From contig NZ_CP030918.1 of assembly GCF_003324675.1 (NCBI RefSeq), positions 480,001-512,000 on the forward strand: a DNA stretch of 32,000 bases, read 5' to 3'. The translations under genes were made by a program, and so were the position numbers. Positions 1,471-30,428 of this stretch are shown here, piece after piece. The stretch comes from Paracoccus suum (lineage in GTDB: Bacteria > Pseudomonadota > Alphaproteobacteria > Rhodobacterales > Rhodobacteraceae). The notes under the pieces were generated by a model. The model was not told the origin of the DNA and made no database searches. It saw only the letters and a program-made list of their open reading frames with translations. Position 1 is the first letter of the stretch; the number at the start of each line of letters is the position of its first letter.

Positions 1471-1531
1471 CCCCTGCCAGACACGCGCCGACCATTCAGC
1501 CCCCCTGCCCCCAATCGCCGGAGCTCCTGTC

Positions 1532-2371
1532 GTGACCGATCAGGCCTTCAACTTTGCCTATCTGGACGAGGACACCAAGCGGATGATCCGCCGGGCGATC
1601 CTGAAGGGCCTCGCGGTGCCGGGTTATCAGGTACCCTTTGCCAGCCGCGAGATGCCGATGCCCTATGGCTGGGGCACCGGCGGGGTCCAGGTCACAGCCG
1701 CCTGCCTGGTACCCGAGGATGTGCTGAAGGTCATCGACCAGGGTGCCGACGACACCACCAATGCGGTCAGCATCCGCAAGTTCTTCCAGCGCACCGCCGA
1801 CGTCGCCACGACCGAGCGCACCGGCGAGGCGAGCGTCATCCAGACCCGCCACCGTATCCCCGAAACCCCGCTGCGCGAGGGGCAGGTGCTGGTCTATCAG
1901 GTGCCGATCCCCGAACCGCTGCGCTTCCTCGAGCCGCGCGAGGTCGAGACGCGGCGCATGCATGCGCTGTCGGAATACGGGCTGATGCAGGTGCGCCTTT
2001 ACGAGGATATCGCCCGCCACGGTGAGATTGCGACCGCCTACGCCTATCCGGTGATGGTCAACGGCCGGCATGTGATGGACCCCTCGCCCATCCCGCGGTT
2101 CGACAACCCCCGGATGCACATGTCGCCGGCGATCCAGCTGTTCGGCGCCGGGCGCGAGCAGCGCATCTACGCCTTGCCGCCGTGGACCGAGGTCGTCAGC
2201 CTCGATTTCGACGACCACCCCTTTACCGCATCCAAGGCGGGCGGCTGCTGCGCGCTGTGCGGCGCGGACAGCAGCTATCTGGACGAAGTCATCACCGACG
2301 ACAGCGGCACGCGGATGTTCGTCTGCTCGGATACCGATTTCTGCACCTCCCGGCAGGAGGATGCCGCATGA
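1532..2371 (+). CDS. phnJ: alpha-D-ribose 1-methylphosphonate 5-phosphate C-P lyase PhnJ
   Basis: 279 aa with a GTG start preceded by GGAG. The protein is PhnJ-like throughout (FNFAYLDE...GYQVPFASREMPMPYGWGTGG) and has a C-terminal Cys cluster (CALCG...CSDTDFC). Confidence 0.95.
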   Translation: MTDQAFNFAYLDEDTKRMIRRAILKGLAVPGYQVPFASREMPMPYGWGTGGVQVTAACLVPEDVLKVIDQGADDTTNAVSIRKFFQRTADVATTERTGEASVIQTRHRIPETPLREGQVLVYQVPIPEPLRFLEPREVETRRMHALSEYGLMQVRLYEDIARHGEIATAYAYPVMVNGRHVMDPSPIPRFDNPRMHMSPAIQLFGAGREQRIYALPPWTEVVSLDFDDHPFTASKAGGCCALCGADSSYLDEVITDDSGTRMFVCSDTDFCTSRQEDAA

Positions 2372-3189
2372 GCTATGCCACGACCGCTGCCCTTGCCGGC
2401 GCCGATGCCTCCGTCATCGCCGTTGCGGAGGCCGATCCGCCCCTGTTGCGGGTCGAGGGCCTCGGCAAATCCTACGGCAGCCGCATCGGCTGCGCGGATG
2501 TCTCGTTCGATCTGTGGCCGGGCGAGGTCATGGGCATTGTCGGCGAAAGCGGCTCGGGCAAGTCGACGCTGCTATCCTGTCTTGCCGGGCACATGGCGCC
2601 CGATGCCGGCCGCGTGATGTTCGACGGCCGCGACACCGTCACGATGCCGGAGGTCGAGCGCCGGCGCCTCGGCCGCACCGACTGGGCCTTTGTCCACCAG
2701 AACCCCCGTGACGGGCTGCGCATGGCGGTCAGCGCCGGCGGCAATGTCGGCGAGCGGCTGATGGCCGTCGGCGCGCGCCACTATGGCAATATCCGCGAGA
2801 CGGCCGAGGACTGGCTCGGCCGGGTCGAGATCGACGCCAGCCGGATCGACGACCGCCCGCGCCAGTTCTCGGGCGGGATGCAGCAGCGGCTGCAGATCGC
2901 GCGCAACCTGGTGACCGGCCCGCGGCTGGTGTTCATGGACGAGCCGACGGGCGGCCTCGACGTGTCGGTGCAGGCGCGCCTGCTGGACCTGTTGCGCGGG
3001 CTGGTGCGCCGGCTGGGGCTGTCGGCGGTGTTGGTGACGCATGATCTGGCCGTGGTGCGGCTGCTGGCCGACCGGCTGATGGTGATGAAGGATGGCCGGG
3101 TGGTCGAAGCCGGGCTGACCGATCAGGTGCTTGACGATCCCCAGCATCCCTATACCCAGCTGCTGGTCTCATCCGTGCTGCAGGTCTGA
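2368..3189 (+). CDS. phnK: C-P lyase system ATP-binding protein PhnK
   Basis: The ATG at 2368 overlaps the phnJ stop (ATGA). Walker A is GESGSGKST, the signature is FSGGMQQR, and the C-terminus is HPYTQLLVSSVLQ as in E. coli PhnK. The upstream part of the 2182 ORF overlaps phnJ and was not used. Confidence 0.93.
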   Translation: MSYATTAALAGADASVIAVAEADPPLLRVEGLGKSYGSRIGCADVSFDLWPGEVMGIVGESGSGKSTLLSCLAGHMAPDAGRVMFDGRDTVTMPEVERRRLGRTDWAFVHQNPRDGLRMAVSAGGNVGERLMAVGARHYGNIRETAEDWLGRVEIDASRIDDRPRQFSGGMQQRLQIARNLVTGPRLVFMDEPTGGLDVSVQARLLDLLRGLVRRLGLSAVLVTHDLAVVRLLADRLMVMKDGRVVEAGLTDQVLDDPQHPYTQLLVSSVLQV

Positions 3190-3192
3190 GCC

Positions 3193-4152
3193 ATGATCCA
3201 CGCCTACGCCACAAGCGACCACTGCCTTGTGCCCCTGCCCGAGGACGCGCCGCTGGCCAGCGCGCGCTGGATTGACATGTTCGATCCGCAGCCGGCCGAG
3301 GTGGCGGCAGTCGACAGCCTGGGCTTTTCCGTCCCGACCCTCGAGGACATGGAGGAAATCGAGATCTCGAACCGCCTCTTTCGCGAGGGCGAGACCGATT
3401 ACATGACCGCGGTCCTGCCCGGCGCGGGACCGGACGGCCGCATCGTGGCGATGCCCGTGACATTCATCCTGTCACTCGACCGCTTGGTCACAGTGCGCCA
3501 CCACGAGCCGCGTCCCTTCGTCACCTTCCCGACCCGGGCCGATCGCGGTACGGCCGGGGTGGTCAATGCCGATCGCATCTTTCTGGGCCTGATGGAGGAG
3601 ACTGTCTCGCGCCTCGCCGACCTGATCGAGGGTGTCGGACGGGTGTTGGACCTGGTCGGCGGGCATGTCTTCGACGGCGGCGGCAGCGCCAAGGACGCGG
3701 TCCTGCGCGTCGCGCTGATGAAGATCGGCCAGCAGGCCGAGGTCATGGCCCGGGTGCGCCTGGGGTTGCTCTCGATCGAGCGGGTGCTGAGCTTTTACAC
3801 CGCCACCGCCGATGCGCGCGACGATGTCGAAAAGCTGCGCGCCCTGTCGCGCACGCTGAACCGCGACGTGCAGGCGCTGGAGGTTCATGCCGATTTCCTC
3901 GGCAACCGGATCGGCATGACGGTCGATGCGACGTTGGGCCTGATCAACCTGCAACAGAACAACACCGTTCGCGTGCTGTCGGTGGTCGCGGCGCTGTTCC
4001 TGCCGCCGACGGTGATCGCCTCGATCTACGGCATGAACTTCGACCACATGCCCGAGTTGCATTGGGCCTTTGGCTATCCCTTCGCGCTGGGGCTGATGGC
4101 CCTGTCGGCGCTGCTGATCTACCTGCTGGCGAAATGGAAGAAATGGTTATGA
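3193..4152 (+). CDS. CorA-family divalent metal ion channel
   Basis: 319 aa with a soluble N-domain, a YGMNF signature, and two C-terminal hydrophobic helices ending KWKKW. It starts 3 nt after the phnK stop, and its stop overlaps the phnL start. Confidence 0.85.
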   Translation: MIHAYATSDHCLVPLPEDAPLASARWIDMFDPQPAEVAAVDSLGFSVPTLEDMEEIEISNRLFREGETDYMTAVLPGAGPDGRIVAMPVTFILSLDRLVTVRHHEPRPFVTFPTRADRGTAGVVNADRIFLGLMEETVSRLADLIEGVGRVLDLVGGHVFDGGGSAKDAVLRVALMKIGQQAEVMARVRLGLLSIERVLSFYTATADARDDVEKLRALSRTLNRDVQALEVHADFLGNRIGMTVDATLGLINLQQNNTVRVLSVVAALFLPPTVIASIYGMNFDHMPELHWAFGYPFALGLMALSALLIYLLAKWKKWL

Positions 4153-4835
4153 TCCGGATCGAGAATGTCGCCAAGGATTTCACCCTACACAATCAGGGCG
4201 GCACGGTCCTGCGGGTGATGGAGGATGCCAGCCTGACCATCGCCCCGGGGGAATGCGTCGGGCTGATCGGCGCCTCGGGCGCAGGAAAATCGACGCTGAT
4301 GCGCATGGTCTGGGGCAACTACCGCGCCGCCAGCGGCCGCATCATGGTCGGCGATACCGATGTCGCACAGGCCGACCCCCGCGCCATCACCCGGCTGCGG
4401 CGCGGCACGCTCGGCTATGTCAGCCAGTTCCTGCGGGTCGTGCCGCGCGTGCCGACGCTGGACGTCGTGGCCGAGCCCCTCCTGACCCTGGGCACGCCCG
4501 AGCCCGAGGCAAAGGCCCGCGCCGCTGCTATGCTGCAGCGGCTGAACATTCCGCAGCGCCTATGGGGGCTGTCGCCGACGACCTTTTCGGGGGGCGAGCA
4601 GCAGCGGGTCAACATCGCCCGTGGCTTTATCCACCCCTCGCCTGCACTGCTGCTGGACGAGCCGACCGCCAGCCTCGACGCCGCCAACCGCGAGCAGGTG
4701 CTGCAGCTGATCGAGGAGGCCAAGGCGCGCGGCGCGGCTATCCTCGGGATCTTTCACGACGAGGCCGCCCGCGATCGGGTCTGCGACCGTTGCATCGACG
4801 TGGCCGGGTTCGCGCCCAAAGCCGCAGCGGCGTGA
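4149..4835 (+). CDS. phnL: C-P lyase system ATP-binding protein PhnL
   Basis: The ATG at 4149 overlaps the corA-like stop (ATGA). MIRIENVAKDFTLHNQGG..., Walker A GASGAGKST, FSGGEQQRVNIARGF and GIFHDE closely resemble E. coli PhnL. Confidence 0.92.
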   Translation: MIRIENVAKDFTLHNQGGTVLRVMEDASLTIAPGECVGLIGASGAGKSTLMRMVWGNYRAASGRIMVGDTDVAQADPRAITRLRRGTLGYVSQFLRVVPRVPTLDVVAEPLLTLGTPEPEAKARAAAMLQRLNIPQRLWGLSPTTFSGGEQQRVNIARGFIHPSPALLLDEPTASLDAANREQVLQLIEEAKARGAAILGIFHDEAARDRVCDRCIDVAGFAPKAAAA

Positions 4836-5392
4836 TAGCGCCCGTGGATCAGGCAGCCGCCCGGGCCTTTGCGCTCGTCGGGCCGTCGGGCGCGGGTAAG
4901 GATACGCTGCTCGCGGTGGCAAAGGCAGCGCGGCCGGACCTGCTGCTGGCCCGGCGCGTCATTACCCGCCCGAGCGAGGCGGGCGGCGAGGATTTCGAGG
5001 GCGTCAGCAACGCCGAGTTCGACGCCCGGAGGCCCGAGTTCGCCCTGACCTGGGCCGCCCATGGACTGCGCTATGCCATCCCCGCCAGCCTGCGCGCGGC
5101 CCAATGCGCGGGCCGCACCGTCATCTTCAACGGCTCGCGCGGGATGCTGGCCGAGGCGGCGCGCGCCTTTGCCCCGCTGTCAGTGATCGCGCTGGAAGCC
5201 GCGCCCGAGGTGCTGGCCGCCCGGCTGGCTGCGCGCGGACGCGAGGACGCCGCCGATATCCGCGCCCGGCTGGCGCGGGCCGACCTGTCCCTGCCCGAAT
5301 TGCCGGGCGTTCCGGTTCACAGGATCGACAATTCCGGCGACCTGGGCGCGGCGGTGGCGGCGCTGCTGGCCGTTCTGGACCGCGGCCGATGA
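4832..5392 (+). CDS. phnN: ribose 1,5-bisphosphate phosphokinase PhnN
   Basis: The GTG at 4832 overlaps the phnL stop (GTGA). The protein is 186 aa with P-loop GPSGAGKD and PhnN-like WAAHGLRYAIP and NGSR motifs. The long upstream part of ORF 4253.. overlaps phnL and was not used. Confidence 0.88.
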   Translation: MIAPVDQAAARAFALVGPSGAGKDTLLAVAKAARPDLLLARRVITRPSEAGGEDFEGVSNAEFDARRPEFALTWAAHGLRYAIPASLRAAQCAGRTVIFNGSRGMLAEAARAFAPLSVIALEAAPEVLAARLAARGREDAADIRARLARADLSLPELPGVPVHRIDNSGDLGAAVAALLAVLDRGR

Positions 5393-5394
5393 GC

Positions 5395-6075
5395 CTAGGC
5401 GGACAGCGGCAAGCGGCGGATCAGGTGGAAGCGGCCCTCGGCGTCCTCGCCCATCAGGCTCAGCGCCTCGATCGGCTGCGGGTCAGCCAGCAGCGGTGCG
5501 AGGCGAGGCTCGAGCGCGGCGCTGGCGCGTGCGGCAGTGTCCGCGTCCAGATTGCCGGTCAGCGTCATGTGGAACTGGAAATCCTCCATCACATGGGGAT
5601 AGCCCCAGCGTTGCAGGTGATCGCGCTGCCGTGGGCTGAGGCGGTCGGGATTGCGCCGCGCAATTTCGGCCGGGGTCAGGGGCGCGCGAAAGCGGTCAAG
5701 GGCTGCGACCAGCCGCGCCTCCAGCCCCGCCAGCGCCGCGCTGCGGGCGGTCGGGATCAGCGCCAGGAATCCGCCGCCCAGCCGTGCCAGTCGCAGGCCG
5801 CCGGCAAGGCCGAAGGCTGCCTCGGTCGCGCAGAAATTGGCAAAGGCAGCCTCCAGGGCGGCACGCTCGCCCGCCAGCCGGAACGGGGCTTTCATCGTCG
5901 CGTGAAAGCCATAGCGGCGCGGGGTATCGGTCAGCGCTGCCATGTCGAGCCCGTCAATCCGTGGCTGCGGCACCGCGCGGCCGGCAGCCACGTCCCAACC
6001 CAGCCATGCGGCCCCAAAATCGCCCAGCGCGCCGGGCGCCGTGTAATAGACCGCAAATCGTGCCAGACCCTGCAT
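5395..6075 (-). CDS. DUF1045-type 2H phosphoesterase (putative phosphonate-metabolism cyclic phosphodiesterase)
   Basis: I chose the start at Met 6075 (MQGLARFAVYY), which is preceded by GGGAGGA. Two H-x-T motifs (GFHATMKAPF and FQFHMTLTG) mark the 2H superfamily. The gene sits inside the phn cluster. Confidence 0.8.
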   Translation of the reverse strand: MQGLARFAVYYTAPGALGDFGAAWLGWDVAAGRAVPQPRIDGLDMAALTDTPRRYGFHATMKAPFRLAGERAALEAAFANFCATEAAFGLAGGLRLARLGGGFLALIPTARSAALAGLEARLVAALDRFRAPLTPAEIARRNPDRLSPRQRDHLQRWGYPHVMEDFQFHMTLTGNLDADTAARASAALEPRLAPLLADPQPIEALSLMGEDAEGRFHLIRRLPLSA

Positions 6076-6128
6076 GGTCCTCCCCTGGGGTTGCATCAAC
6101 GACATGTCCCTGCGCCAGACGCCCACCG

Positions 6129-7304
6129 ATGACCAGCCAGAACCCGAGTATCCCGATGACCCAAGACGCGATCCTTGCCAATGCCATCCTGATCCTGCCG
6201 GGCGAGACGCGCCGCGGCGGCCTGCGCCTGAAGGACGGCGCGATCGCCGAGATCCTGGACGGCGCAGAAGTACCGGCCGGCGCGCTCGATCTGGACGGCG
6301 ACTACCTCGCACCCGGCCTCGTCGAGTTGCACACCGACAACCTGGAGCAGCATCTGCAGCCGCGTCCCGGCGTGAACTGGCCTCATGCGGCGGCAATCAT
6401 CGCCCATGATGCCGAGTTGGCGGGCGTCGGCATCACCACCGTGTTCGACGCGATGCGCGTGGGGTCTATCAACAGCGGCGACCGGACCACCGATTACGCC
6501 CGCTACGCGCGCCCGCTGGCGACGGAACTGCTGGCAATGCGGGCCACCGGGGCGCTGCGGATCAGCCATTTCCTGCACCTGCGCGCCGAGGTCTGCAGCG
6601 AGACCCTGATCGAGGAACTAGACGAATTCGACGAAGGTGACCGCGTCGGCCTCATCAGCCTGATGGACCATACGCCCGGGCAGCGACAGTTTCGCGACGT
6701 CTCGCAACTGGAAAAATATGTGAAGGGCAAGTTCAACGTCGATGACGCCGGCTTCGCCGCCCATATCGCCCGGCTGCACGAGTTGCGGGCCCGCTTTGGC
6801 GACGATCACGAGGCGGCGGCAGTGGCGGTGGCCGGGCGCCTTGGGGCAGTGCTGGCCAGCCATGACGACACCACTGCCGAGCAGGTCGAGACCTCGGCCC
6901 GCTACGGCATCCGCCTGGCCGAGTTCCCGACCACCATCGAGGCTGCCGCCGCCTGCCACGAGCATGGCATCAAGACCATCATGGGCGCGCCCAACCTGAT
7001 CCGCGGTGCCAGCCACAGCGGTAACGTCGCCGCGCGCGAGTTGGCCGAGGCCGACCTGCTGGACATCATCAGCAGCGATTACGTCCCCTCGGCGCTGCTG
7101 ACCTCGGCCAATGTGCTGGCCGATCTGTGGGACGATCTGCCGCGCGCGATCGCGACCGTTACCGCGACTCCGGCCGCCGCCGCCGGGCTGGCGGATCGCG
7201 GACACATCGCCCCGGGCATGCGTGCCGACCTGATCCGTTTCCGCCGCATGGGCGGCAATGCCGTGCTGCGTGAAACCTGGGTGCAGGGCCGCCGCGTCGC
7301 CTGA
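6129..7304 (+). CDS. phnM: alpha-D-ribose 1-methylphosphonate 5-triphosphate diphosphatase PhnM (amidohydrolase fold)
   Basis: Start at ATG 6129, with an alternative ATG at 6156. It shows the amidohydrolase hallmark (LAPGLVELHTDNLE) and SHDD / GAPNLIRGASHSGN segments like PhnM. The upstream portion of ORF 5784.. is antisense to the DUF1045 gene. Confidence 0.9.
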   Translation: MTSQNPSIPMTQDAILANAILILPGETRRGGLRLKDGAIAEILDGAEVPAGALDLDGDYLAPGLVELHTDNLEQHLQPRPGVNWPHAAAIIAHDAELAGVGITTVFDAMRVGSINSGDRTTDYARYARPLATELLAMRATGALRISHFLHLRAEVCSETLIEELDEFDEGDRVGLISLMDHTPGQRQFRDVSQLEKYVKGKFNVDDAGFAAHIARLHELRARFGDDHEAAAVAVAGRLGAVLASHDDTTAEQVETSARYGIRLAEFPTTIEAAAACHEHGIKTIMGAPNLIRGASHSGNVAARELAEADLLDIISSDYVPSALLTSANVLADLWDDLPRAIATVTATPAAAAGLADRGHIAPGMRADLIRFRRMGGNAVLRETWVQGRRVA

Positions 7305-8683: not shown

Positions 8684-9625
8684 ATGAGCTATTATGGACG
8701 CCTTCCGACGGGCTACAGCATTGGCGGTAGCATTTCGCCCGTTGGCGAGACCGACAGTTATCGGGTGACCTTGGTTCCCGGGCTGACTTATTCCATTACT
8801 GCCCAAGGTTCCTCAAGCGGCAACGGTACGCTGGTCGATCCTCATATGGCGCTGACCACCCTTAGCGGGCGTCAGCTTGCTTATGATGACGACATATCGA
8901 GCAGCAATTACGATGCGCAAATTGTGTGGACAGCGCCCGCAGGTGGTTCTTCTCTCGATTATTTTGTCAACGTCGCGGAGAATGGGGATAATGCGAGTGG
9001 CACATACAAGCTGACCGTCTCTGCCGGATATGCATCTAACTACGCGGACCGCGTGGTTGGGAGTGCCTACGGCGATGCCATTGCCGGTATGGACGGTAAC
9101 GACCAGTTGGCGGGCGGCAACGGGAATGACTACCTGTATGGCCAGAACGGCAACGATTACCTGATGGGCTTGAATGACCACGACTACCTCAGCGGCGCAA
9201 CGGGCAACGATTCACTTCGCGGCGGGACGGGGTCAGATCGCTTGGTCGGCGGAGCCGGAGCGGACCAGTTGGTAGGTGGATCAGGCGCTGACCGCTTCAT
9301 CTTCTACGCAGGAGATTCTGGTCGCTATGATTACGATGCCATTATGGCTGGCGATGGAGGCCTTGCATTCGACGGAATCGGCGCGGCGGCAGGCGATGTC
9401 ATCGACCTTTCGGCGATCGACGCCAACCCTTATGTGGCCGGTAACCAAGCGTTCCAGTTCAGCTCGACCCTGACAACTGGGACGGCCTACCTTACCGAGA
9501 ACACACGCGGCGACACTGTGCTCATGGCCTCGACCGACGCGGATAGCGAACCCGAACTCGTGATCCAGATCCGCGACGGCGCATACACAGCGAGCCAATA
9601 CGCCGCCAACGACTTCATCCTGTAG
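8684..9625 (+). CDS. RTX-type calcium-binding protein with N-terminal PPC-like (pre-peptidase C-terminal) domain and type I secretion-style C-terminus
   Basis: 313 aa with RBS AGAGGAG upstream. The N-terminus (GETDSYRVTLVPGLTYSI...YKLTV) is PPC-like. About 8 GGxGxDxUx nonapeptides follow. The C-terminus DVIDLSAIDAN...GNQAFQF is typical of T1SS substrates, and there is no Sec signal peptide. Confidence 0.85.
   Translation: MSYYGRLPTGYSIGGSISPVGETDSYRVTLVPGLTYSITAQGSSSGNGTLVDPHMALTTLSGRQLAYDDDISSSNYDAQIVWTAPAGGSSLDYFVNVAENGDNASGTYKLTVSAGYASNYADRVVGSAYGDAIAGMDGNDQLAGGNGNDYLYGQNGNDYLMGLNDHDYLSGATGNDSLRGGTGSDRLVGGAGADQLVGGSGADRFIFYAGDSGRYDYDAIMAGDGGLAFDGIGAAAGDVIDLSAIDANPYVAGNQAFQFSSTLTTGTAYLTENTRGDTVLMASTDADSEPELVIQIRDGAYTASQYAANDFIL
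9062..9301 (+). repeat. RTX nonapeptide (GGxGxDxUx) repeat block inside the CDS
   Basis: Consecutive units: GMDGNDQLA GGNGNDYLY GQNGNDYLM GLNDHDYLS GATGNDSLR GGTGSDRLV GGAGADQLV GGSGADRFI. Confidence 0.85.
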
Positions 9626-13216: not shown

Positions 13217-13236
13217 GGGCACGTTTTCAGGTGCCC
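13217..13236. terminator. Possible bidirectional hairpin between convergent genes
   Basis: Inverted repeat gggcac / gtgccc (13217-13222 / 13231-13236) with an 8-nt loop gttttcag that contains the stop codon of the giant gene. The stem is short and there is no clear U-tract. Confidence 0.25.
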
Positions 13237-16200
13237 ACGCTGGTAAGGACAGAGATTTCGCGCTCGATCATCAGATCGGCGTCAGATTGCGCCCGCACTC
13301 GCCGGGCCGCGGCCTCCGACAGGCGGAGGAACAAATCCGGTTCGTGATACAAGCGCTCAATAGCGTCGGCGAGCGCCTGAGCATCATCAGGCGGGACGAG
13401 AATTCCGCAGGTTTCGTCCACGAACTCTGGAACTGCGGCGACAGCGGTAGTGACCGGCACCAGGCCTGACGCCATCGCCTCGTCGCGCGACACGCCATGA
13501 GTATCGGTGCGCGTGGGGACCAGAAATATGCCGGCCTCACGGTGAAGGCCCGCGATCTCGGTATGCGACAGAAAGCCTTTCTGGATTTCGACATTATCCA
13601 TGCCGCGCAGCGGGGCCACCGTCTCCTCCAACAGCGGGCCGTCACCTGCGATGCGGAAGTGCATCTGGTCGAACCAAGGCTTGGCTGACAGGATCCGAAT
13701 CGCGGCGACCGCCAGATCATTGGCGTATACGCTGGATGCAAACGGCCGAAGCAGCAGTACTTTTAGCCTGTCTTCGGTTTTTTTGGGCTGGTAGGCAAAT
13801 ATCCCGGTGTCGATCGGATTGTGAATGACCTCGATTTGGCCAGGCACAAAGCTGATCCCCAGATCCTCAGCCGCCGTATCCGCAAGCTGCTGCGAGACGA
13901 ACACCAGCTTCAGGTTCGGATGTTGCGGCCTCAGAACGCCGTGCCAGAAGGCCATACGCGCATCACTGGCGCGCTGTGCCGCCTCACGCTCTGCTGGCGT
14001 GGTGTAAAGGAATGCGCGCCGCGTCCAAGGCTGAATGTCTACGCCGTGGCACCAGACGACCACCCTCACCCGATCTAGATGCGGTCGCAGGATGTCCCAC
14101 ACTTCCGGCGTCAGGAAATGAACTGCCACGGTGTCATAACCGCCCTCGGCGAGCATCTTGTCGAGCGTCACACGGTCAGCCGTCATCACGTCGGTGTTTT
14201 CGAACTCGGTGAAGGTCGGCGCGACGCTCTCTCGGAAGCGCAATACGGAGGGGCGGAGCCCGAGGGCGGCATAGCGGCGCACCCGACTGTGCAGGAAGGC
14301 GTTACGATAGAGGTCCGAATAGGCCGGGTATTGGTTTGTGACGATCAACACCCGCCCCCGGTCCAACAGGGTGCTCGGCGTCAACTGCCGATGGGTCAGG
14401 TCGAGCGACTTGATCTCGCACATACCGCTGCCGAGGACGCGCAGGCCGAGTCGAACCGAGGCGGTGCCGGCGGGGGGCTCGGCGGTCTCGTTGCGCAGCG
14501 GATGGATCATCGCGTGGCCAAGGCGGCTGCCCTTGGCGTCGAGCCAAATCATTACGAACGAAATCGAGAGGCCCGGGCTCACGTCGACATGACAACGCAA
14601 CACTCCATTCTCGAGAACCTCGGACGGGCGGAGCGATGTCGTGCTGTAGATGTAGGCATGCTTGCCGTCGGCCAATTCGGAGGCGACCTCGAACGAGATC
14701 GGTGAGACGACGATCTGAACACCCGGTGCGCTTTGGCCGCGGAACAGCCGGGCCAAATCACGGTTGTCGAGACGGCGTGCCGTCGCCGGCATGTCTGCCG
14801 GCTTGATGGACTCGGCCCTCGAGAGGATCTCGGGCAGGGGCAGGCCGGGGTCGATGCCGCGCAGGTCGTCGACCACGCTGGCGATGGTGGTGCGGTCCGC
14901 GACCTCATGGCAGTAGTTGAACGGATCGACCGACAGGACGCGATCGGCTCGCCAGTCACCGGTATCGATTCCGTCAAGCAGCCCCGCGCGGTCCTGTTCG
15001 TTCAGCAATGCGCCACGGATGATCCCCCGCCGGCGGGAAATGCCCGCGACCGGGATATAGGCCGCGGCCGGGTCCATCAACGTGCCATCCCCCGTGGGGT
15101 AGGCAGCCTTGCCGATCACATCCGCCCCGCTGTAGCGAGTCGCGAGCACCAGATCGCGCAGGTAGTTCGGCCCGTAATAGTCCTTGGCGCTGAAGCAAGC
15201 CAGCCAGCCAGCCGCCAGTTCTTCAGTCAGGTCGGGCGGGGCTTCCCCCTCGGATAGCAGGCGCACGCGCGGATCGTGGTCCGCCGCCCTGAACCCTTCC
15301 GGGGCAATCAGCAGCAGCCTGGCGTCGCGGTGGGTCTGGGCGGTGAACGCGGCGAGCAGGTGGCGTGCAGATTCCTCGTCCGGCGCGTGGGCGATGACCG
15401 TCACGGCTGGCAGGTCCGCCTGCGGCGCGCGATCCGGCAGCGCCTTTGAGACGACATAGGCCAACCGGTCGGCCGAGGTATGCTGCGACATGATCTTGCG
15501 CAAACCTGCAAGGCGCAGCCGGTCGGCATGGCCGGGCTGGTCCGCGACCTTTTCAAATCGGCGCGTAACCTCGCCGTGATCGTCCGACGAGATCACCAGA
15601 TCCCCGAACATCATGCGCAGCCCGCGCGAGAAATTGCTGATCGTCACGGTACCCGAGGCGAGCAGTTCATAGACGCGCCGGGCAAACATGCTCTGCGATT
15701 GCTTCACCGAATTCAGGTTGATCGCGTAGCGATAGCCCTTGTAAGCGACGTCGATCCGGCTCGCCGGCAGCGTGCCGACGATGAACGTCCTGAAGGACTC
15801 CGGAAAGGCGTAGTTCGGGTCGTCCCTGCCCCAGTTGCGGTCAAAGATGTCGAGCGGTCGCAGCAGCGGCAGGCCGGCGGTGAAGTTTTCCAGATCGCGG
15901 GTCCGCTCGGGGTAGCGGGTATAATACGCGCCGGCGAAGTTGATCGCATCGCGGCGGGCGAACAGTTCGATCGGATTGTGCACGCGCGGCTGGCAGGCGA
16001 AGGGCAGCAGCCAGACCCGGTCGTGGCGCAGCGCCTGCCGGTAGAGGTGGATGCAGTCGATATCGGTCGTAAAGACGTGGTCGAACAGCTTGGCGGTGCT
16101 CAGAAAAGAGGTGTAGTGGACCGGATCTTCCTTGTTCCAGAAGACCGTCGGCACGCCATTCTTGCGGCACCATCCCACCAGGTCATGCAGTTCCTGGCTG

Positions 16201-18998
16201 CGGTGGCCAATCTTGCGGTCCCAGCTGTCGTTCTTGCCGCGCCAAGCAGATTCAACGAACAGAAGGTCCGGCTTGAAGCCCTCGATCTCGGACTGCCAGT
16301 TGCCGGCGGTCAGGCCGAGCAGATCGGCCTCGGGCGCAAAGCAGGTGTAGGTGAAATCGTCCATGATTGCGGCGACACGCAGGTCCTTGCGCGGAGCAAG
16401 CAGAATGTCGGCAACTCTCGCCGCGCCCTCGCGCGCGGCGAGGGGCTCCGGCGGGGCGTAACCATCACGAAAGATCGGCGCCGTGATGGCGGGTGCGGCG
16501 GCGGCCTTGGCCTGCACCTCGGTCGAGGATGCGGCCTGCGGCGCCTCCCCGGGTGGGGGCCCCGACGTGGGCGCGGCGACCGGCCCGGGCCTCGCCGGAG
16601 GTGCCGCTTCGACGGGCGGGGGCAAAAGACCCGGCGGCGGCGAGTCGAGATGGGTGCGGAACACCCGCGCCATCCGCACCGGAATGGCGGCAAAGCCGCG
16701 CACCGAGGCGGCGCCATCGCGCAGCACCTCGCCGGCGCGATAGGTGCGGCTGTTGGCCATGCTGACCAGTCGACCGCGCAGCAGCGAGTTCTGCCCCTGA
16801 GCTTCACGCAGCCGCCGCTCGGTCATGGTCAGCGCCGCCCGCAGTTGCGGGACGGTCTGGTCGTAACGACCTGTCAGTTCGCGGTACTTGGTATTTGCGG
16901 CGTCAAGTTTCTGGCGCGCGGTCTCGGCCTCAATCTGCCGTTTTTGGCTCTCGCTGCGGACACCAACCAGCTGGCTCTGGAGTTCGGCGATCTCCCGCTG
17001 ATCAGCCTCGCGCCGGGTTTTGGCGGCAGCCATATCCATCGCATGGATCTGGGCTTTGGCCTTGGCGTCACGCAAGTCGGCCTGGATGCGGTCGTAGTCC
17101 GCAGTCAGCGATTTGATATCGGCGAGTGCGCCTGACAGCGCGGCCGTCTTGCTCTCGACCGCGCTGCGAATCGCCGCCGTGTCCTTGCGCGCGGCCTGCA
17201 ACTGTTCACTCACGTTGCGGTATTTGGTGTTCGCTTCGCTCAGGGCCTTTTTGAGGCGCGCAAGTTCCAATCCGCTGCGATACGATTCAACCGCGAGGCG
17301 CAAGCCCGCTTGTTCCAACCGGTCTTTCTGGTCTGCCAACGCCGACGGGAGGAAAAGATGGGTCGGCGTCGCGTTGAACGTATCCCAGTACTTATAGCCC
17401 AAAGGGTGCAGCAGACGCAGGACGGCACGAAAGCTGGCCTCGTTTTCACACTCGACATACAGTATCGGCTGGTCGCGCTTGATTAGATCCTCGGCTCCGG
17501 CGAGAACCGCGCTTTCCATTCCCTCCACGTCGATCTTGATGGCGCGGACTGGTCCCGGAAACGACTGCGAGTCAAGCGTCACAACGTCAATTTCACCCGC
17601 GCCCAACTCGAGGTGTTGGCCACCCAGATTTTCTGGACGCTCGACGCCGAACTTTGCCCGACCAGCGCTGGCGCCGACCCCGAATTTGCGGATCGACAGC
17701 CGCTCGCCGAGATCATTTTCGGCGATGGACTGTTCGATCGCCTCAACAAGGTGGGGGTTGGGCTCGAAGGCAATGACGCGGCAATCTGCGACGACGGCCA
17801 GATACATCGCGTGATTACCGATATTCGCGCCGATATCGAGGACCAGATCGCCTGGCGATAGGCGCGACGCCATGTCGCGCAGCATTTCGCGCTCGTAAGG
17901 TTCGCGCGTCTGGGCAATGCCCTTCTGGATGTAGTCCGTGGCAGAATCCGGCAGGACCATCCGATAACTGCGGTCCCCTTCGATGACCTCGAACGGACCG
18001 TCGGGGGCGGCAGGCGTGGCCTCGTCAGAGGTGACGACCGGCTCGGCGCGCGTTGGCTGATGCGCCTTTACTTCGTCAACAGGGCTGCGCGATTCGGCCA
18101 TCAAATCTTCCGTATGGGTCTGTTTCAAGCCTTGCGACTTGAGGGCGATGGGTTGAGCCCCCGGCTGAATGGTATCTCCCGGCGCAGCTGGCATGTGAAG
18201 GGCGGCCGAAGGGCGGTGCCGGGAGGAAGGATCATTCTGACCAGCGATCTCGCCCGCCTGAATGATCTCTCGTAGCTGGGAAATCGCGGTATCGTAAATG
18301 CTTTGCTGATAGTGAAACGGTTCGAGGCCCCATTTGTGCCCATGATCGGCCAACAGAGAGTCTGTTTGATATGTCAACCATCGTGTTTGCGGCAGCGCCT
18401 CAGCCAGGGCGTCATACATTTTTGCAAGTAAAAGATTCTGACGTTTCGCCACGGCCGCGGGATATTCGTCGATTGGAGCGCCCGATTGATCTGTCAGCGC
18501 CCAGAATACGCGATTCACCACCAGCCGTTCCTGCCAGCCTCGCGCCTTGATCAGGGTAGCAAAGTGGATCAGGCCTTCTCGCCACCGATCGTAACGCTCT
18601 GGATCGCTATTCACCAAGCGACGACCCGCCATAGAACCAGCAGCGGAATCAGCCCCAGATAAGAATTCGGGGGAAACTGTGACCGCGTCACCGCTCGCCC
18701 GTAACAAGATATCAAATCGCTCGTCGATGAAATCCAGTAAGATCAGATCGAAATCGTCATCCCGCAAGGCGGCGAGCAGGCTCTTGTCCATGTCCCGCAA
18801 TACCATGCGGCGCTGAAACGGGCTGTCGATGCGGGCCAGGAGCGCATGGTCCACTAGCGGATGCGCGTTAAGCACCGCAAAACTGCTGCGGGCATAATAG
18901 TCGCTAATCACGAAATCCGGACTCGGGCTGAGCGCAAAGATGTCGCGGCTGGCGCAACTTCCGATGATCAGCACTCGGGTCTGGCGGCCTTCGTTCAT
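13227..18998 (-). CDS. Giant multidomain glycan-assembly protein: unknown N-domain + FkbM-family methyltransferase + long coiled coil + Pro/Ala linker + CgeB-like glycosyltransferase + GT-A-like module + beta-rich module + GT4 glycosyltransferase
   Basis: A single uninterrupted frame. The Met at 18998 forms an ATGA overlap with the wecC stop; the longest ORF starts at 19013. Motifs: LDIGANIGNH / AFEPNP / IKIDVEGME (FkbM); INLNSVKQSQSMFARRVYELLASG (CgeB-like GT-B); GVSRDEAMASGLVPV (GT4). Confidence 0.9.
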   Translation of the reverse strand: MNEGRQTRVLIIGSCASRDIFALSPSPDFVISDYYARSSFAVLNAHPLVDHALLARIDSPFQRRMVLRDMDKSLLAALRDDDFDLILLDFIDERFDILLRASGDAVTVSPEFLSGADSAAGSMAGRRLVNSDPERYDRWREGLIHFATLIKARGWQERLVVNRVFWALTDQSGAPIDEYPAAVAKRQNLLLAKMYDALAEALPQTRWLTYQTDSLLADHGHKWGLEPFHYQQSIYDTAISQLREIIQAGEIAGQNDPSSRHRPSAALHMPAAPGDTIQPGAQPIALKSQGLKQTHTEDLMAESRSPVDEVKAHQPTRAEPVVTSDEATPAAPDGPFEVIEGDRSYRMVLPDSATDYIQKGIAQTREPYEREMLRDMASRLSPGDLVLDIGANIGNHAMYLAVVADCRVIAFEPNPHLVEAIEQSIAENDLGERLSIRKFGVGASAGRAKFGVERPENLGGQHLELGAGEIDVVTLDSQSFPGPVRAIKIDVEGMESAVLAGAEDLIKRDQPILYVECENEASFRAVLRLLHPLGYKYWDTFNATPTHLFLPSALADQKDRLEQAGLRLAVESYRSGLELARLKKALSEANTKYRNVSEQLQAARKDTAAIRSAVESKTAALSGALADIKSLTADYDRIQADLRDAKAKAQIHAMDMAAAKTRREADQREIAELQSQLVGVRSESQKRQIEAETARQKLDAANTKYRELTGRYDQTVPQLRAALTMTERRLREAQGQNSLLRGRLVSMANSRTYRAGEVLRDGAASVRGFAAIPVRMARVFRTHLDSPPPGLLPPPVEAAPPARPGPVAAPTSGPPPGEAPQAASSTEVQAKAAAAPAITAPIFRDGYAPPEPLAAREGAARVADILLAPRKDLRVAAIMDDFTYTCFAPEADLLGLTAGNWQSEIEGFKPDLLFVESAWRGKNDSWDRKIGHRSQELHDLVGWCRKNGVPTVFWNKEDPVHYTSFLSTAKLFDHVFTTDIDCIHLYRQALRHDRVWLLPFACQPRVHNPIELFARRDAINFAGAYYTRYPERTRDLENFTAGLPLLRPLDIFDRNWGRDDPNYAFPESFRTFIVGTLPASRIDVAYKGYRYAINLNSVKQSQSMFARRVYELLASGTVTISNFSRGLRMMFGDLVISSDDHGEVTRRFEKVADQPGHADRLRLAGLRKIMSQHTSADRLAYVVSKALPDRAPQADLPAVTVIAHAPDEESARHLLAAFTAQTHRDARLLLIAPEGFRAADHDPRVRLLSEGEAPPDLTEELAAGWLACFSAKDYYGPNYLRDLVLATRYSGADVIGKAAYPTGDGTLMDPAAAYIPVAGISRRRGIIRGALLNEQDRAGLLDGIDTGDWRADRVLSVDPFNYCHEVADRTTIASVVDDLRGIDPGLPLPEILSRAESIKPADMPATARRLDNRDLARLFRGQSAPGVQIVVSPISFEVASELADGKHAYIYSTTSLRPSEVLENGVLRCHVDVSPGLSISFVMIWLDAKGSRLGHAMIHPLRNETAEPPAGTASVRLGLRVLGSGMCEIKSLDLTHRQLTPSTLLDRGRVLIVTNQYPAYSDLYRNAFLHSRVRRYAALGLRPSVLRFRESVAPTFTEFENTDVMTADRVTLDKMLAEGGYDTVAVHFLTPEVWDILRPHLDRVRVVVWCHGVDIQPWTRRAFLYTTPAEREAAQRASDARMAFWHGVLRPQHPNLKLVFVSQQLADTAAEDLGISFVPGQIEVIHNPIDTGIFAYQPKKTEDRLKVLLLRPFASSVYANDLAVAAIRILSAKPWFDQMHFRIAGDGPLLEETVAPLRGMDNVEIQKGFLSHTEIAGLHREAGIFLVPTRTDTHGVSRDEAMASGLVPVTTAVAAVPEFVDETCGILVPPDDAQALADAIERLYHEPDLFLRLSEAAARRVRAQSDADLMIEREISVLTSVGT

Positions 18999-20275
18999 GC
19001 GGCTTTGGTCCATGCACCGCGGGTGTCGATGACACGGGTTCCCGGACGCAGCTTTGGCGCCGCGGACTTGAACTGGCTGTGATCGACCAGCAGGACGGCG
19101 ATGTCAGCCTTGGCCAAGGCGCTTTCCGTGTCAGCCAGGCGTGCGGCTTGCAGGCCCTCGGGCAGCGCGTCCGTGTGGGGTTCAACCACCATCAGGCCGG
19201 GGAGCTGGGCCGACAGCGTGCGGGCGATGGCGAGGGCGGGGCTTTCGCGCAGATCGTCGATATCGGCCTTGAAAGCCAGGCCGAAGCAGGCGACCTGCGG
19301 CTGGCGGCCGGGGTTGGCGTCGGTCCAGTCGGCGATCGCGGCGTGGACGCGCGCGATGACCCAGCCGGGCTTGCTGTCATTGACCTCGCGCGCGGTGCGG
19401 ATCAGGCGTGCCTCGGCAGGGACCTGGCTTACGATGAACCACGGGTCGACCGCGATGCAATGTCCCCCGACACCCGGGCCGGGTTGGAGGATGTTGACGC
19501 GTGGATGACGGTTCGCGAGGCGGATAAGTTCCCAGACGTCGATGCCGAGGCGGTCGCAGATCAGCGACAATTCGTTGGCAAAGGCAATGTTGACATCGCG
19601 AAAGCTGTTCTCGGTCAGCTTGGCGAGTTCTGCCGTGCGGCAGTCGGTCTCGATGCACTCACCCTCGACGGCCAGCTCGTAGAGCGCGCGCGCCCGGGTA
19701 GCGCAAGCCGCGGTCATGCCGCCGATGATCCGGTCGTTGCTGACCAACTCCTCCAGCGCGCGGCCGGGCAGGATGCGTTCCGGGCAATGGGCGATGCGGA
19801 TGTCCGACTGCTCGCCATGGGTGGCGGGAAAGGTCAGGTCGGGCCGCTCGGCCGCCAGCCAGTCCGCCATCTGCTCGGTCGCGCCGACTGGGCTGGTCGA
19901 TTCGAGGATCACCAGATCCCCCGCTTTCAGGACCGGCGCAATGGCCCGCGCGGCGCTTTCGATATAGCGCAGATCGGGGTCATGTGCGCTCTCACCCTCG
20001 CGGAACGGGGTTGGCACGGCGATGAGGAATGCGTCGGCCGCCTCAGGGGTGGTCGTCGCGCGCAAATGACCCGAAGCGACGACCTCCTGCAGCGCCTCCT
20101 CCAGTCCCGGCTCGACGATATGGGTCTGCCCGGCATTGATCTTGTCGACCGCCGCGGCATTGACGTCAAAGCCGATCATGCGCACCCCGCGCCGGGCAAA
20201 GACGACCGCCGTCGGCAACCCGATATAGCCCAGCCCGACCATGCAGACGGTGCCGAAAGAGGTGCTGTCGCTCAT
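18995..20275 (-). CDS. wecC: UDP-N-acetyl-D-mannosamine dehydrogenase
   Basis: 426 aa and near-colinear with E. coli WecC as I remember it ([11 protein letters not shown]..., [56 protein letters not shown]). The ATG overlaps the wecB stop (ATGA). Confidence 0.93.
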
Positions 20276-27212: not shown

Positions 27213-28661
27213 ATGACGACCACACCTACAACGGGCACCGCCCGCACCCTGTATGACAAGATCTGGGACGCGCATGTCGTCGACCGCCAGCCGGACGGCA
27301 CCTGCCTGCTCTATATCGACCGGCACCTGGTCCACGAAGTGACCAGCCCGCAGGCCTTCGAGGGGCTGCGTCTGTCGGGCCGCAAGGTGCGCCGTCCGGA
27401 CCAGACCATTGCCGTACCCGACCACAACGTGCCGACCACGCCTGACCGAGTGAACGGGATCGAAAACCCCGAAGGCCGCATCCAGGTCGCCGAACTGGAC
27501 AAGAATGCCCGCGATTTTGGCCTGAACTATTACCCCATGAACGATGTGCGTCAGGGAATCGTGCATATCGTGGGCCCCGAGCAGGGGTGGACCCTGCCCG
27601 GCATGACCGTCGTCTGCGGTGACAGCCATACCGCGACCCATGGTGCCTTTGGCGCGCTGGCGCATGGCATCGGCACCTCGGAGGTCGAGCATGTGCTGGC
27701 CACCCAGACGCTGATCCAGCAGAAATCCAAGAACATGAAGGTCGAGATCACGGGGAAGCTGCGCCCCGGGGTCACGGCCAAGGACATCACCCTGCAGGTG
27801 ATCGGCCTGACCGGCACCGCCGGCGGCACCGGCTATGTCATTGAATACTGCGGCGAGGCGATCCGCGCGCTATCGATGGAAGGCCGTATGACGGTCTGCA
27901 ACATGGCCATCGAGGGCGGTGCCCGCGCTGGCCTTATCGCCCCCGACCAGACCACCTTCGACTATGTCGAGGGCCGCCCGCACGCCCCCAAGGGCGCGGC
28001 GTGGGAGGCGGCGATGGACTGGTGGCGCACGCTCTATTCCGATGACGACGCGCATTGGGACAAGGTGGTGACAATCCGCGGCGAGGACATCGCCCCGGTC
28101 GTGACCTGGGGCACCTCACCCGAGGATGTGCTGCCGATCACCGCCTCGGTCCCCGCGGCCGAGGATTTCGAGGGCGGCAAGGTCGAGGCAGCGCGCCGCA
28201 GCCTCGACTACATGGGCCTTACCCCCGGCACCCCGCTGGCCGAGATCGCAATCGACGCAGTGTTCATCGGCAGCTGCACCAATGGCCGGATCGAGGACCT
28301 GCGCGCTGCCGCCGGCATCCTGAAGGGCAAGCACTTGGCGCCGACGGTGCGCGGCATGGTCGTGCCCGGCAGCGGGCTCGTTCGCCTGCAGGCTGAGGAA
28401 GAAGGCCTCGACGTCATCTTCCGCGACGCCGGCTTTGAATGGCGCCTCGCTGGTTGCTCGATGTGCCTTGGCATGAACCCGGACCAGTTGGCCCCGGGCG
28501 AGCGTTGCGCCGCGACCTCGAACCGCAACTTCGAGGGGCGGATGGGCCGCGGCGGGCGTACCCACCTGATGTCGCCGGTCATGGCCGCAGCTGCCGGCAT
28601 CGCCGGCCATCTGGTCGATGTCCGCGAGGTCATGGACGCGCCCGCGCCCGCCACGGCCTGA
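27213..28661 (+). CDS. leuC: 3-isopropylmalate dehydratase large subunit
   Basis: 482 aa ([53 protein letters not shown]). Confidence 0.96.
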
Positions 28662-28666
28662 CGGCC

Positions 28667-29176
28667 ATGGACGACGAGAGCGAGTACACCGGCCTGCCCT
28701 TCGATCCGCAGGACGCGGTCAGCCAGTTCGATGATCGCGACGACATGGACGCGGCCATCGCCGCGCTCGAGGCCGAGGGGTTCAGCACCCGCCGCATCGT
28801 CTGCGAGGATGATGCGGTGATGCTAGGGGGCATCGCCCGCGCACTCGACTGGCAGGCGCAGTTCGGACGCCCGCTTCGGCGGCTGAACCTCGACGCCTTC
28901 GCCGACGCCCTGCGTGGCGTCCCCTCGGACGAGGACAGTCGCGTGCTGCTGGTGCTGGAGCGTTTTCGCAGCTTCGAGGCGCGCGACGCAGCCGCGGCCG
29001 AAGGCATTGTCGAGGCGATCCGCGACGCGGCCGCCGACCATCTCGAGGTGAACCGCCGCCTGCTCGCCTTCATCTGCACCGATCCCGACGACGACGATTT
29101 CGACGATTCAGACAGCGCGGAGGATGGCGATCAGATCGACCATGACCCCGCAGAGGAGTGGCTACGCCATGGATAA
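28667..29176 (+). CDS. acidic barstar-like (RNase-inhibitor family) protein
   Basis: 169 aa with strong GC3 coding bias. The core aligns by eye to barstar: [11 protein letters not shown] vs [22 protein letters not shown] vs [23 protein letters not shown] vs SVLQVFREAKAE. It starts 6 nt after the leuC stop and overlaps the leuD start by 8 nt. Confidence 0.7.
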
Positions 29177-29774
29177 GTTCACTACCCTGACCGGTATCGC
29201 GGCGCCCATGCCGCTGGTCAACATCGACACCGACATGATCATCCCCAAGCAGTTCCTGAAGACGATCCATCGCACGGGCCTCGGCAAGAACCTGTTCGAC
29301 GAGATGCGCTTTCTGGCCGACGGGACCGAGAACCAGGATTTCGTGCTGAACCAGCCCGCATGGCGCAGCGCCGAGATCATCGTCGCGGGCGACAACTTCG
29401 GCTGCGGCAGCTCGCGCGAGCATGCGCCTTGGGCGCTGCTGGATTACGGCATCCGCTGCGTGATCTCGACCAGCTTCGCCGACATCTTCTACAACAACTG
29501 CTTCAAGAACGGCATCCTGCCGATCACCCTGCCGGCCGAAGCGGTCGAGGCGCTGATGGAGGACGCCAATCGCGGCGCCAACGCACGCCTGACCGTGGAC
29601 CTGGAGGCGCAGACGGTCACCGCCTCGGACGGCGAGGTGTATGACTTCGAGATTGACGCGCACAAGAAGCATTGCCTGCTGAACGGGCTCGATGACATCG
29701 GCCTGACCATGGAAAAGGGCGCGGCGATCGACAGCTACGAGGCGCGCATGGCCCAGGCCCAGCCCTGGGTCTAA
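29169..29774 (+). CDS. leuD: 3-isopropylmalate dehydratase small subunit
   Basis: Start at Met 29169 ([31 protein letters not shown]). It also carries [17 protein letters not shown]. Confidence 0.95.
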
Positions 29775-29819: not shown

Positions 29820-29903
29820 CGGCCGGCGGCAACCGTCACATGATTGTGAGAACAGGTGCCTCGTGCTAGGGTTGCGGCAATTCCCAACTGGCAAGGCCGC
29901 ACC

Positions 29904-30428
29904 ATGCGTAGCAGCACCCTGATGATCGTCGCCGGCGTCCTCTCACTTCTGGCCGGACTGGTCGCGCTGGTTTTCCCCTTGCCGGCGTCGCTGGCGGTCA
30001 CCGTGCTGACCGGCTGGGCCTTCCTGATCAGCGGTGTCCTCGGCCTTTGGGCCGCCTTCTCGAACGAGACCTTGCAGCATCGCGGCTGGGTTGGGGCGAT
30101 CGGCGTTCTGAACATGGTGGTCGGCGTCTGGATGCTGGCCAATCCGCTGGCCGGGATGATTTCGCTGACGGTGGTGGTCGGGGCCATGCTGCTCGCCTCC
30201 GGCGTCGCGCGGATTGTCGGTGGCTTCGGGCCCTACAAGGGGACGCAGATGCAGTGGATGATGGTGCTGTCCGGCATCATCTCGGTCGCGCTGGGAATTT
30301 ACATCATCGCCGCGCTGCCGGTTTCCAGCATCGTCACCCTCGGCATCCTGGTCGCGATCGAGTTGATCGTCGTCGGCGTGACGCTGACTTCGGCCGGCAT
30401 CACCCTGCGCCGGACCCGCACGCTCTGA
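29904..30428 (+). CDS. HdeD/DUF308-family small membrane protein
   Basis: I chose the start at Met 29904 (MRSSTLMIVAGVLSLLAG). It has six hydrophobic helices with repeated G-rich helix pairs typical of DUF308. Confidence 0.75.
   Translation: MRSSTLMIVAGVLSLLAGLVALVFPLPASLAVTVLTGWAFLISGVLGLWAAFSNETLQHRGWVGAIGVLNMVVGVWMLANPLAGMISLTVVVGAMLLASGVARIVGGFGPYKGTQMQWMMVLSGIISVALGIYIIAALPVSSIVTLGILVAIELIVVGVTLTSAGITLRRTRTL

Follow-up and report, generated by a model that had tools for sequence, protein, structure and literature searches.

Barstar of Bacillus amyloliquefaciens (Protein Data Bank (PDB) entries 1BRS and 1BTA) is an acidic protein of 89 amino acids (aa) in which a parallel sheet is flanked by helices, one of them bearing a DxxxD motif. 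That motif is also the signature of Imm-Barstar (Zhang et al. 2012, PMC3482391), the corresponding immunity family of polymorphic toxin systems, which associates specifically with barnase-like toxins and in the published table is paired with Ntox21 as well (PMC3482391). As a rule, an Imm-Barstar gene immediately follows the gene or cassette of a Tox-Barnase or Ntox21 toxin. Alpha-proteobacterial members that have no linked barnase toxin are listed too (PMC3482391). Here we analyse a member of this family, gene X, in a stretch of 32,000 nucleotides (nt) of the Paracoccus suum genome (contig NZ_CP030918.1, positions 480,001 to 512,000; hereafter the window). The gene is placed between leuC and leuD, and we find that this position is a slot in which genes are gained, stacked and exchanged, X being one lineage-specific item of its cargo.

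The product of X shares with B. amyloliquefaciens barstar the Pfam family, the acidic character, the DxxxD helix and a predicted parallel sheet flanked by helices. It differs in being 169 aa long, in having an additional N-terminal strand-helix and a long acidic C-terminal tail, and in lacking an adjacent barnase gene. With Imm-Barstar it has in common a predicted alpha/beta fold, DxxxD, conserved hydrophobic positions, a small gene on the strand of its neighbours and, as in the alpha-proteobacterial members just mentioned, the absence of a linked toxin; one related locus also carries a tandem divergent paralogue. The setting of X between two housekeeping genes departs from the typical arrangement. 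The features on which the analysis relies are the following.

27213..28661, + strand: leuC, encoding the large subunit of 3-isopropylmalate dehydratase; upstream border of the slot (NCBIfam TIGR00170, 775 bits)
28667..29176, + strand: gene X, acidic barstar-family protein of 169 aa (open reading frame (ORF), Pfam, AlphaFold (AF2), substitution-rate ratio dN/dS, database names)
28718..28774, + strand: extra N-terminal strand-helix unit of X, residues 18-36 (AF2 E18-21 and H24-36; subfamily alignment)
28784..29077, + strand: barstar core of X, residues 40-137, predicted as beta1-alpha1-(short helix)-alpha2-beta2-alpha3-alpha4-beta3 (AF2, Foldseek, hhalign, hmmsearch)
28886..28918, + strand: signature helix of X, residues 74-84, with DxxxD as D76...D80 (alignments; PMC3482391 signature)
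29081..29173, + strand: variable poly-acidic tail of X, residues 139-169, ending in the conserved AEEWL motif (predicted local distance difference test score (pLDDT) <55)
29153..29158, + strand: GAGGAG, a hexamer resembling a Shine-Dalgarno sequence for leuD, within the two Glu codons of AEEW and 10 nt before the leuD ATG (sequence)
29169..29774, + strand: leuD, small subunit, downstream edge of the slot (NCBIfam TIGR00171, 263 bits)

Family, fold and conservation of gene X

The identities of leuC and leuD are secure. The initial annotation, made from the nucleotide sequence alone, had described a very acidic 169-aa protein overlapping the leuD start by 8 nt, and this is reproduced: the TAA of X ends at 29176, the leuD ATG begins at 29169, and the protein, with 45 Asp and Glu against 16 Lys and Arg, has an isoelectric point of 4.05. 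The start of X 6 nt behind the leuC stop is confirmed as well: with that stop ending at 28661 and the X ATG at 28667, the spacer is 5 nt. The acidic tails described at both ends are likewise evident, the most acidic stretches being residues 1-39 and the last 31 residues (139-169). GC at codon positions 1/2/3 is 0.78/0.42/0.83 and thus similar to that of the adjacent genes, which makes X unlike a recent foreign arrival or a chance frame; in the tail, GC at the third position (GC3) falls to 0.62. An identical protein is deposited for P. suum (AXC48700.1 / WP_114075019.1) under the names "hypothetical protein" in GenBank, "barstar family protein" in RefSeq and "Barstar (barnase inhibitor) domain-containing protein" in UniRef, so that the family assignment is already public in RefSeq and UniProt.

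X belongs to the barstar family (PF01337 / Imm-Barstar). Its match to Pfam Barstar PF01337 has E = 1.6e-8 and 34.9 bits, above the gathering score of 23.4, and spans residues 46-126, equivalent to profile positions 11-85 of 96; the by-eye alignment with barstar in the initial annotation is borne out, all three of its blocks being recovered by hmmsearch and hhalign. Identity to barstar itself is ~18-20%, and hhalign against the barstar sequence gives E = 2.3e-4. A profile of the subfamily described below, searched against the PDB, retrieved barstar as its best match at a marginal E = 0.012. Phmmer of the single X sequence against the PDB returned no match, and NCBIfam holds no model matching X.

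The predicted fold agrees with that of barstar. In an AF2 model built with a 25-sequence alignment (mean pLDDT 81; core >90), the elements are E18-21, H24-36, E40-45, H49-59, H62-66, H75-84, E92-98, H100-106, H108-127 and E131-137. From residue 40 on, their predicted order is that of barstar, whose fold has three parallel strands and four helices (beta-alpha-alpha-beta-alpha-alpha-beta); a single additional strand-helix unit stands before it. In Foldseek, many barstar chains align with the model, at template modelling (TM) scores of 0.63-0.71 (on barstar length) and a root mean square deviation of ~3.3 A. Kinship with P-loop or AAA+ proteins was considered and rejected: no Walker A motif is seen by eye, and the Foldseek matches to origin recognition complex (ORC) subunits are generic alpha/beta sandwich matches that cover only part of much larger proteins (TM on target 0.2-0.3).

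X is a real, conserved gene. A word-indexed search of 5.8 billion proteins retrieved four full-length orthologues (62-70% identity) and one chimera, and the DNA of all four orthologues was compared with that of the window gene by the Nei-Gojobori method in 10 pairs, with bootstrap 95% limits. The reading frame is unbroken in all five diverged sequences, and dN/dS (omega) is 0.22-0.47 in all 10 pairs, with 95% upper limits <=0.70 at dS of 0.49-0.90. Purifying selection therefore acts on X, and it is weaker than on leuC and leuD. Against the orthologue on metagenome contig L001, the core of the window protein (residues 40-138) shows 75% identity and an omega of 0.43, and the acidic tail differs in length and sequence among the orthologues.

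A 29-nt direct repeat is shared by the leuC 3' end (28615-28643) and X codons 21-30 (28728-28756). It is 24/29 identical, lies in the same codon phase, and has a score exceeding all 200 codon shuffles (maximum 22). An origin of X by duplication of the leuC 3' end was nonetheless rejected, the repeat being missing in the L001 orthologue and the segment being homologous to the wider subfamily.

That subfamily, of long barstars, is distinct and uncharacterised. When 1.84 billion cluster representatives were searched exhaustively by profile, 90 relatives were detected at E <= 1e-3, most of them 165-172 aa long and aligned over nearly their full length, and 42 of the 46 aligned members match PF01337 independently. 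They are mostly metagenomic (examples are P0008, P0010 and P0095), and no characterised member was found among them. The members share an N-terminal strand-helix, a QFGY-x5-NLDALNDAL motif and a C-terminal LGxRxxxWNxxEW...RG segment. Homology to X extends over the full length, with the N-terminal strand-helix, QFG...NLDAxxDAL and the C-terminal EW in common, and L75 and D80 of X are nearly invariant in the subfamily; E164/W165 in the tail of X are nearly invariant too. With 20-35% identity, the X clade forms a divergent branch, in which FGR stands for FGY, Ala for the conserved Asn at the barstar W38 position, and a variable poly-Asp/Glu linker for LGxRxxxWN, whereas the terminal EW is kept. 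It is also the only branch found inside a leu cluster.

PADLOC returned nothing for X, PHROGs gave one weak match of unknown function (E = 0.03), tblastn of X found nothing in plasmid or phage collections, and a degenerate DNA pattern for GNLDALNDA occurred at 28 metagenome loci and 0 viral ones.

The leuC-leuD junction as a variable cargo slot

The initial annotation had regarded the gene as hard-wired into a core amino-acid biosynthesis operon and had proposed a survey of leuC-X-leuD conservation among relatives; the result runs against that view. Scanned with a pattern from the X-clade alignment, the genome collection yielded no relative, and the survey was for this reason anchored on leuD instead. 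It comprised the best 80 of at least 598 leuD-matching stretches in GTDB contigs (one genome per species), with leuC located in each. By tblastn, X is encoded in 0/80 of these loci; beyond P. suum, it was seen only on a few metagenome contigs of close relatives (L001-L005 and L124-L126). In the 58 loci with both leuC and leuD in reach, mostly Rhodobacterales, the distance between the two genes ranges from a ~28-nt overlap to 3290 nt, taken from tblastn alignment ends and each possibly overestimated by up to ~24 nt. It is merely 2-30 nt in many loci, and in 28/58 it exceeds 250 nt and accommodates unrelated cargo. A leuC within 4 kb of leuD is missing in many of the remoter matches, which are largely records of Rhizobiales/Hyphomicrobiales type.

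The leuC-leuD junction is thus a variable cargo slot in this order. Its cargo includes DUF308 membrane proteins (in several genera), an ABM monooxygenase, a GT4 glycosyltransferase, an isochorismatase, methyltransferases, HupE/UreJ together with MFS and DUF4198, an Hva1-TUDOR protein, RDD proteins, a cyclopropane-fatty-acid synthase-like enzyme and proteins without family; transporters are among it, and part of it lies on the opposite strand. The flanks are stable, with an MscS-type channel gene upstream of leuC and, in most Rhodobacterales loci, an endonuclease/exonuclease/phosphatase (EEP)-family gene downstream of leuD. A link between X and the EEP gene two genes downstream was rejected on this basis, since EEP follows leuD in most of these loci with or without X. 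The DUF308 gene stands after leuD in P. suum (29856-30428) and in L001, and between leuC and leuD in P. solventivorans (L006:3382-3903) and at least seven other genera, so that one and the same gene is found in either of two slots around leuD. No insertion mechanism was identified at the slot. Given that unrelated cargo is common at the junction, the placement of X is far less special than it had looked.

Variation continues within the X-bearing clade, as the following gene orders show.

P. suum window and L001: leuC - X - leuD - DUF308 - EEP
L124: leuC - second barstar paralogue (133 aa) - X - leuD
L125: DUF308 - X - leuD
L126: leuC - X - alpha/beta-hydrolase - leuD
L005: hydrolase::X chimera - leuD

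The paralogue in L124 (142-543) is 36% identical to the X core and has no acidic tail; the X orthologue follows it at 555-1049. In L126 (region 190-1546), X and leuD are separated by an alpha/beta-hydrolase gene. In the 250-aa ORF of L005 (353-1105), X residues 67-169 follow the N-terminus of a hydrolase, and the two parts meet at a shared ...W/RRLNLDA... sequence; the ORF is a genuine recombinant or else a chimera that arose during assembly at the microhomology.

Concerning expression, neither a sigma-70-like promoter nor a terminator-like hairpin was detected by a simple scan inside leuC-X-leuD, which suggests that X is probably carried on the leu transcript and transcribed together with leuC and leuD. 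No leader or riboswitch was found in the window by Rfam. Starts and stops that overlap or abut are retained at all four orthologue loci examined. The first cargo gene of L001, L124 and L126 has its ATG overlapped by the stop of the gene upstream (as ATGA or TGATG); P. suum has the 5-nt spacer instead. GAGGAG or a comparable hexamer lies in the final codons (…AEEWL..G) of each of the five X sequences, and behind it the following gene, leuD or, in L126, the hydrolase, begins within X. The EW motif is conserved also in subfamily members that have no such downstream gene, and the motif hence doubles as protein motif and ribosome-binding site. From this anatomy of starts, stops and ribosome-binding sites, translation of X is probably coupled to leuC and leuD. 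The initial annotation had held co-translation with the leucine operon to be almost certain: the tight spacing and the lack of detected internal signals fit the co-expression that this implies, and the coupling itself, read from gene anatomy as it is, we grade as probable.

Partner search and competing readings

By hhalign, X D76-A-F-A-D80 corresponds to barstar D35-A-L-W-D39 and D120 to E76; D124 falls on E80 when the alignment register is extended. Barstar Y29, W38, T42, W44, E76 and E80 are the positions that we take, from barnase-barstar mutagenesis, to be the barnase-contact hot spots. The claim that the residues plugging the barnase active site are retained stands as regards both Asp, to which the acidic residues at E76 and E80 may be added, and Ala indeed occupies the Trp38 position (A79). 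It does not extend to the remaining contacts: Y29 and W44 are replaced by Q65 and V85, T42 by R83, and a 5-residue Arg-rich insertion (PLRRL) follows G67, in the loop between alpha1 and alpha2 that adjoins the binding helix. With several contact residues replaced, canonical barnase is an unlikely target, and the target of X is probably a different one; the lost hot spots do not count against membership of the barstar family.

The genomic surroundings were searched for a partner. In agreement with the initial annotation, no barnase-like, other RNase or toxin gene was found in a search confined to the window: Pfam detects no RNase or toxin domain in the 32 other window ORFs scanned, and no secretion-system or Rhs/CdiA gene is present in the 32 kb. 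Where toxin-immunity pairs have an adjacent RNase toxin, as a rule directly upstream, X has leuC upstream and leuD downstream. The wider subfamily was treated alike, with 38 loci carrying its members inspected or fetched and their neighbours clustered. Gene neighbourhoods vary from locus to locus, members are mostly solitary, and no recognisable barnase-type or toxin gene was found beside them in loci with precomputed annotation. The sole neighbour common to independent loci is a small protein encoded directly upstream of the long-barstar gene in L086 (4495-4998) and L093 (2085-2411), ending in ...NDWGWTGPE(N/D)RRP(A/T)WSK and without Pfam family, which looks like an immunity-type protein and not like a toxin. 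In both loci small genes cluster on one strand, most of them without Pfam family, an arrangement reminiscent of immunity gene islands.

We infer RNase inhibition and an immunity role for X, and to the reading that it is a lineage-specific orphan immunity-type RNase inhibitor carried on the leu transcript we give an even chance. In this proposal the P. suum lineage would have acquired a long-barstar gene as cargo in the leuC-leuD slot, and X would be expressed by riding the leu transcript, its translation coupled to leuC and leuD. The protein would act as a stoichiometric acidic inhibitor whose DxxxD helix (75-84), by analogy with barstar, docks on the basic active-site face of a ribonuclease; the enzyme might be a toxin of the barnase/BECR type, encoded elsewhere in the genome or delivered by competitors. 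The toxin association described for Imm-Barstar and its unlinked alpha-proteobacterial members (PMC3482391) fit the immunity reading, the tandem diverged paralogue in L124 fits the behaviour of immunity genes, and the clusters of small genes around the distant members in L086 and L093 speak for such behaviour as well. Several results weigh against it. Beside the lack of an RNase or toxin domain in the window, neighbour clustering of the 38 loci brought no recurrent partner gene adjoining independent subfamily members; the dN/dS of X is 2-4 times that of leuC (0.10) and leuD (0.18) at the same divergence; and Y29, W38, W44 and T42 are replaced, with the Arg-rich insertion in the binding loop. 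The barstar match is, moreover, marginal both by sequence (E = 0.012) and by Foldseek (E ~6e-3), whose top ranks are ORC subunit (AAA+-type) alpha/beta folds with E-values similar to barstar's.

The main rival is a repurposed scaffold, a possibility that we hold to be real but clearly minor. X and the ~170-aa subfamily would then bind a non-toxin partner, such as a housekeeping RNase or a nucleic-acid-binding protein, the acidic tails would act as a nucleic-acid mimic, and the dose would follow leucine limitation. The nearly always solitary occurrence of the subfamily in housekeeping neighbourhoods is in keeping with this, as are the loss of three aromatic barnase contacts, the binding-loop insertion, the conserved modules that barstar itself does not have (the N-terminal strand-helix and the C-terminal WN..EW..RG tail), the strongly acidic tails added in the X clade, and the coupling anatomy to leuC and leuD, which the examined orthologue loci retain. 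Yet X is confined to a very narrow clade in whose relatives the slot holds unrelated genes, which speaks against a role linked to leucine biosynthesis, and the acidic linker varies in length and sequence as would a weakly constrained spacer. Less likely still, and in our judgement improbable, is a decaying or functionless orphan immunity remnant, kept because leuD takes its ribosome-binding site and start context from the 3' end of X. The elevated dN/dS, the partner toxin not found, the replacement of the conserved LGxRxxxWN segment by low-complexity acidic sequence in the X clade, and the coincidence of the conserved AEEW codons with the leuD Shine-Dalgarno sequence all speak for a remnant. 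Yet the frame is intact in five diverged sequences with omega well below unity, the core is conserved and is modelled with pLDDT >90, and the EW motif is maintained in subfamily members that have no leuD downstream.

The position of X, and a stoichiometric co-translation, would be explained if X were an accessory factor of isopropylmalate isomerase, serving for instance assembly or protection of the LeuC Fe-S cluster or bridging LeuC and LeuD, for it is encoded exactly between the two subunit genes and the coupling anatomy is conserved in L001 and L124. This is the least probable of the readings: X is missing from all 80 leuD loci surveyed, many of which have leuC and leuD nearly abutting, the hydrolase gene splits X from leuD in L126, DUF308 precedes X in L125, other subfamily members are nowhere near leu genes, and the slot of other genera carries unrelated genes, often in reverse orientation. 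A combined reading joins several of the above elements and appears doubtful, more so than the remnant. In it, long barstars are a distinct family of solitary inhibitors of an endogenous RNA- or DNA-handling enzyme and not of barnase-type toxins, of which one copy with nucleic-acid-mimicking acidic tails was captured into the leu transcript of the P. suum lineage, so that leucine starvation would raise the inhibitor dose; separately, the Rhodobacterales junction would be a true intra-operon cargo slot whose genes are repeatedly gained, stacked and exchanged.

Other loci of the window and biological meaning

Three further regions of the window deserve a record. At 83-7304 lies a C-P lyase cluster for phosphonate utilisation, with PhnI, PhnJ, two ABC ATPase-type genes like PhnK/L and a PhnM-like amidohydrolase; a DUF1045 match is found on an overlapping minus-strand ORF, and a CorA-type Mg2+ transporter gene is situated inside the cluster. 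The + strand at 8684-9625 encodes a 313-aa protein with RTX calcium-binding repeats, the N-terminal ~170 residues of which have no Pfam family and the GC3 of which (0.66) is distinctly below that of its surroundings; on these two grounds it may be a horizontally acquired secreted protein. On the - strand at 13227-19013 is encoded a 1928-aa multidomain protein comprising DUF6270, an FkbM methyltransferase, a coiled coil and several GT1/GT4 glycosyltransferase domains. Its GC3 of 0.75 is below that of its neighbours, it adjoins genes for UDP-glucose dehydrogenase and UDP-GlcNAc 2-epimerase, and the region is probably a polysaccharide-modification locus.

As regards novelty, literature searches on an immunity-type gene between leuC and leuD, on barstar with leuD and on barstar with orphan immunity returned nothing relevant, and such a gene between leuC and leuD appears to be unreported. 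Nothing in the findings on X overturns current understanding. Should X be an active RNase inhibitor, it would represent an immunity-type gene whose expression depends on signals borrowed from an essential pair of biosynthetic genes and which has no toxin gene beside it; this could be a way in which orphan immunity genes are retained and constitutively expressed. The long-barstar subfamily is a reasonable target for structural and biochemical study. The content of the slot cautions against reading function from operon position here, and the slot itself, as a tractable example of a recurrent insertion site inside a conserved gene pair, is perhaps the more useful result.

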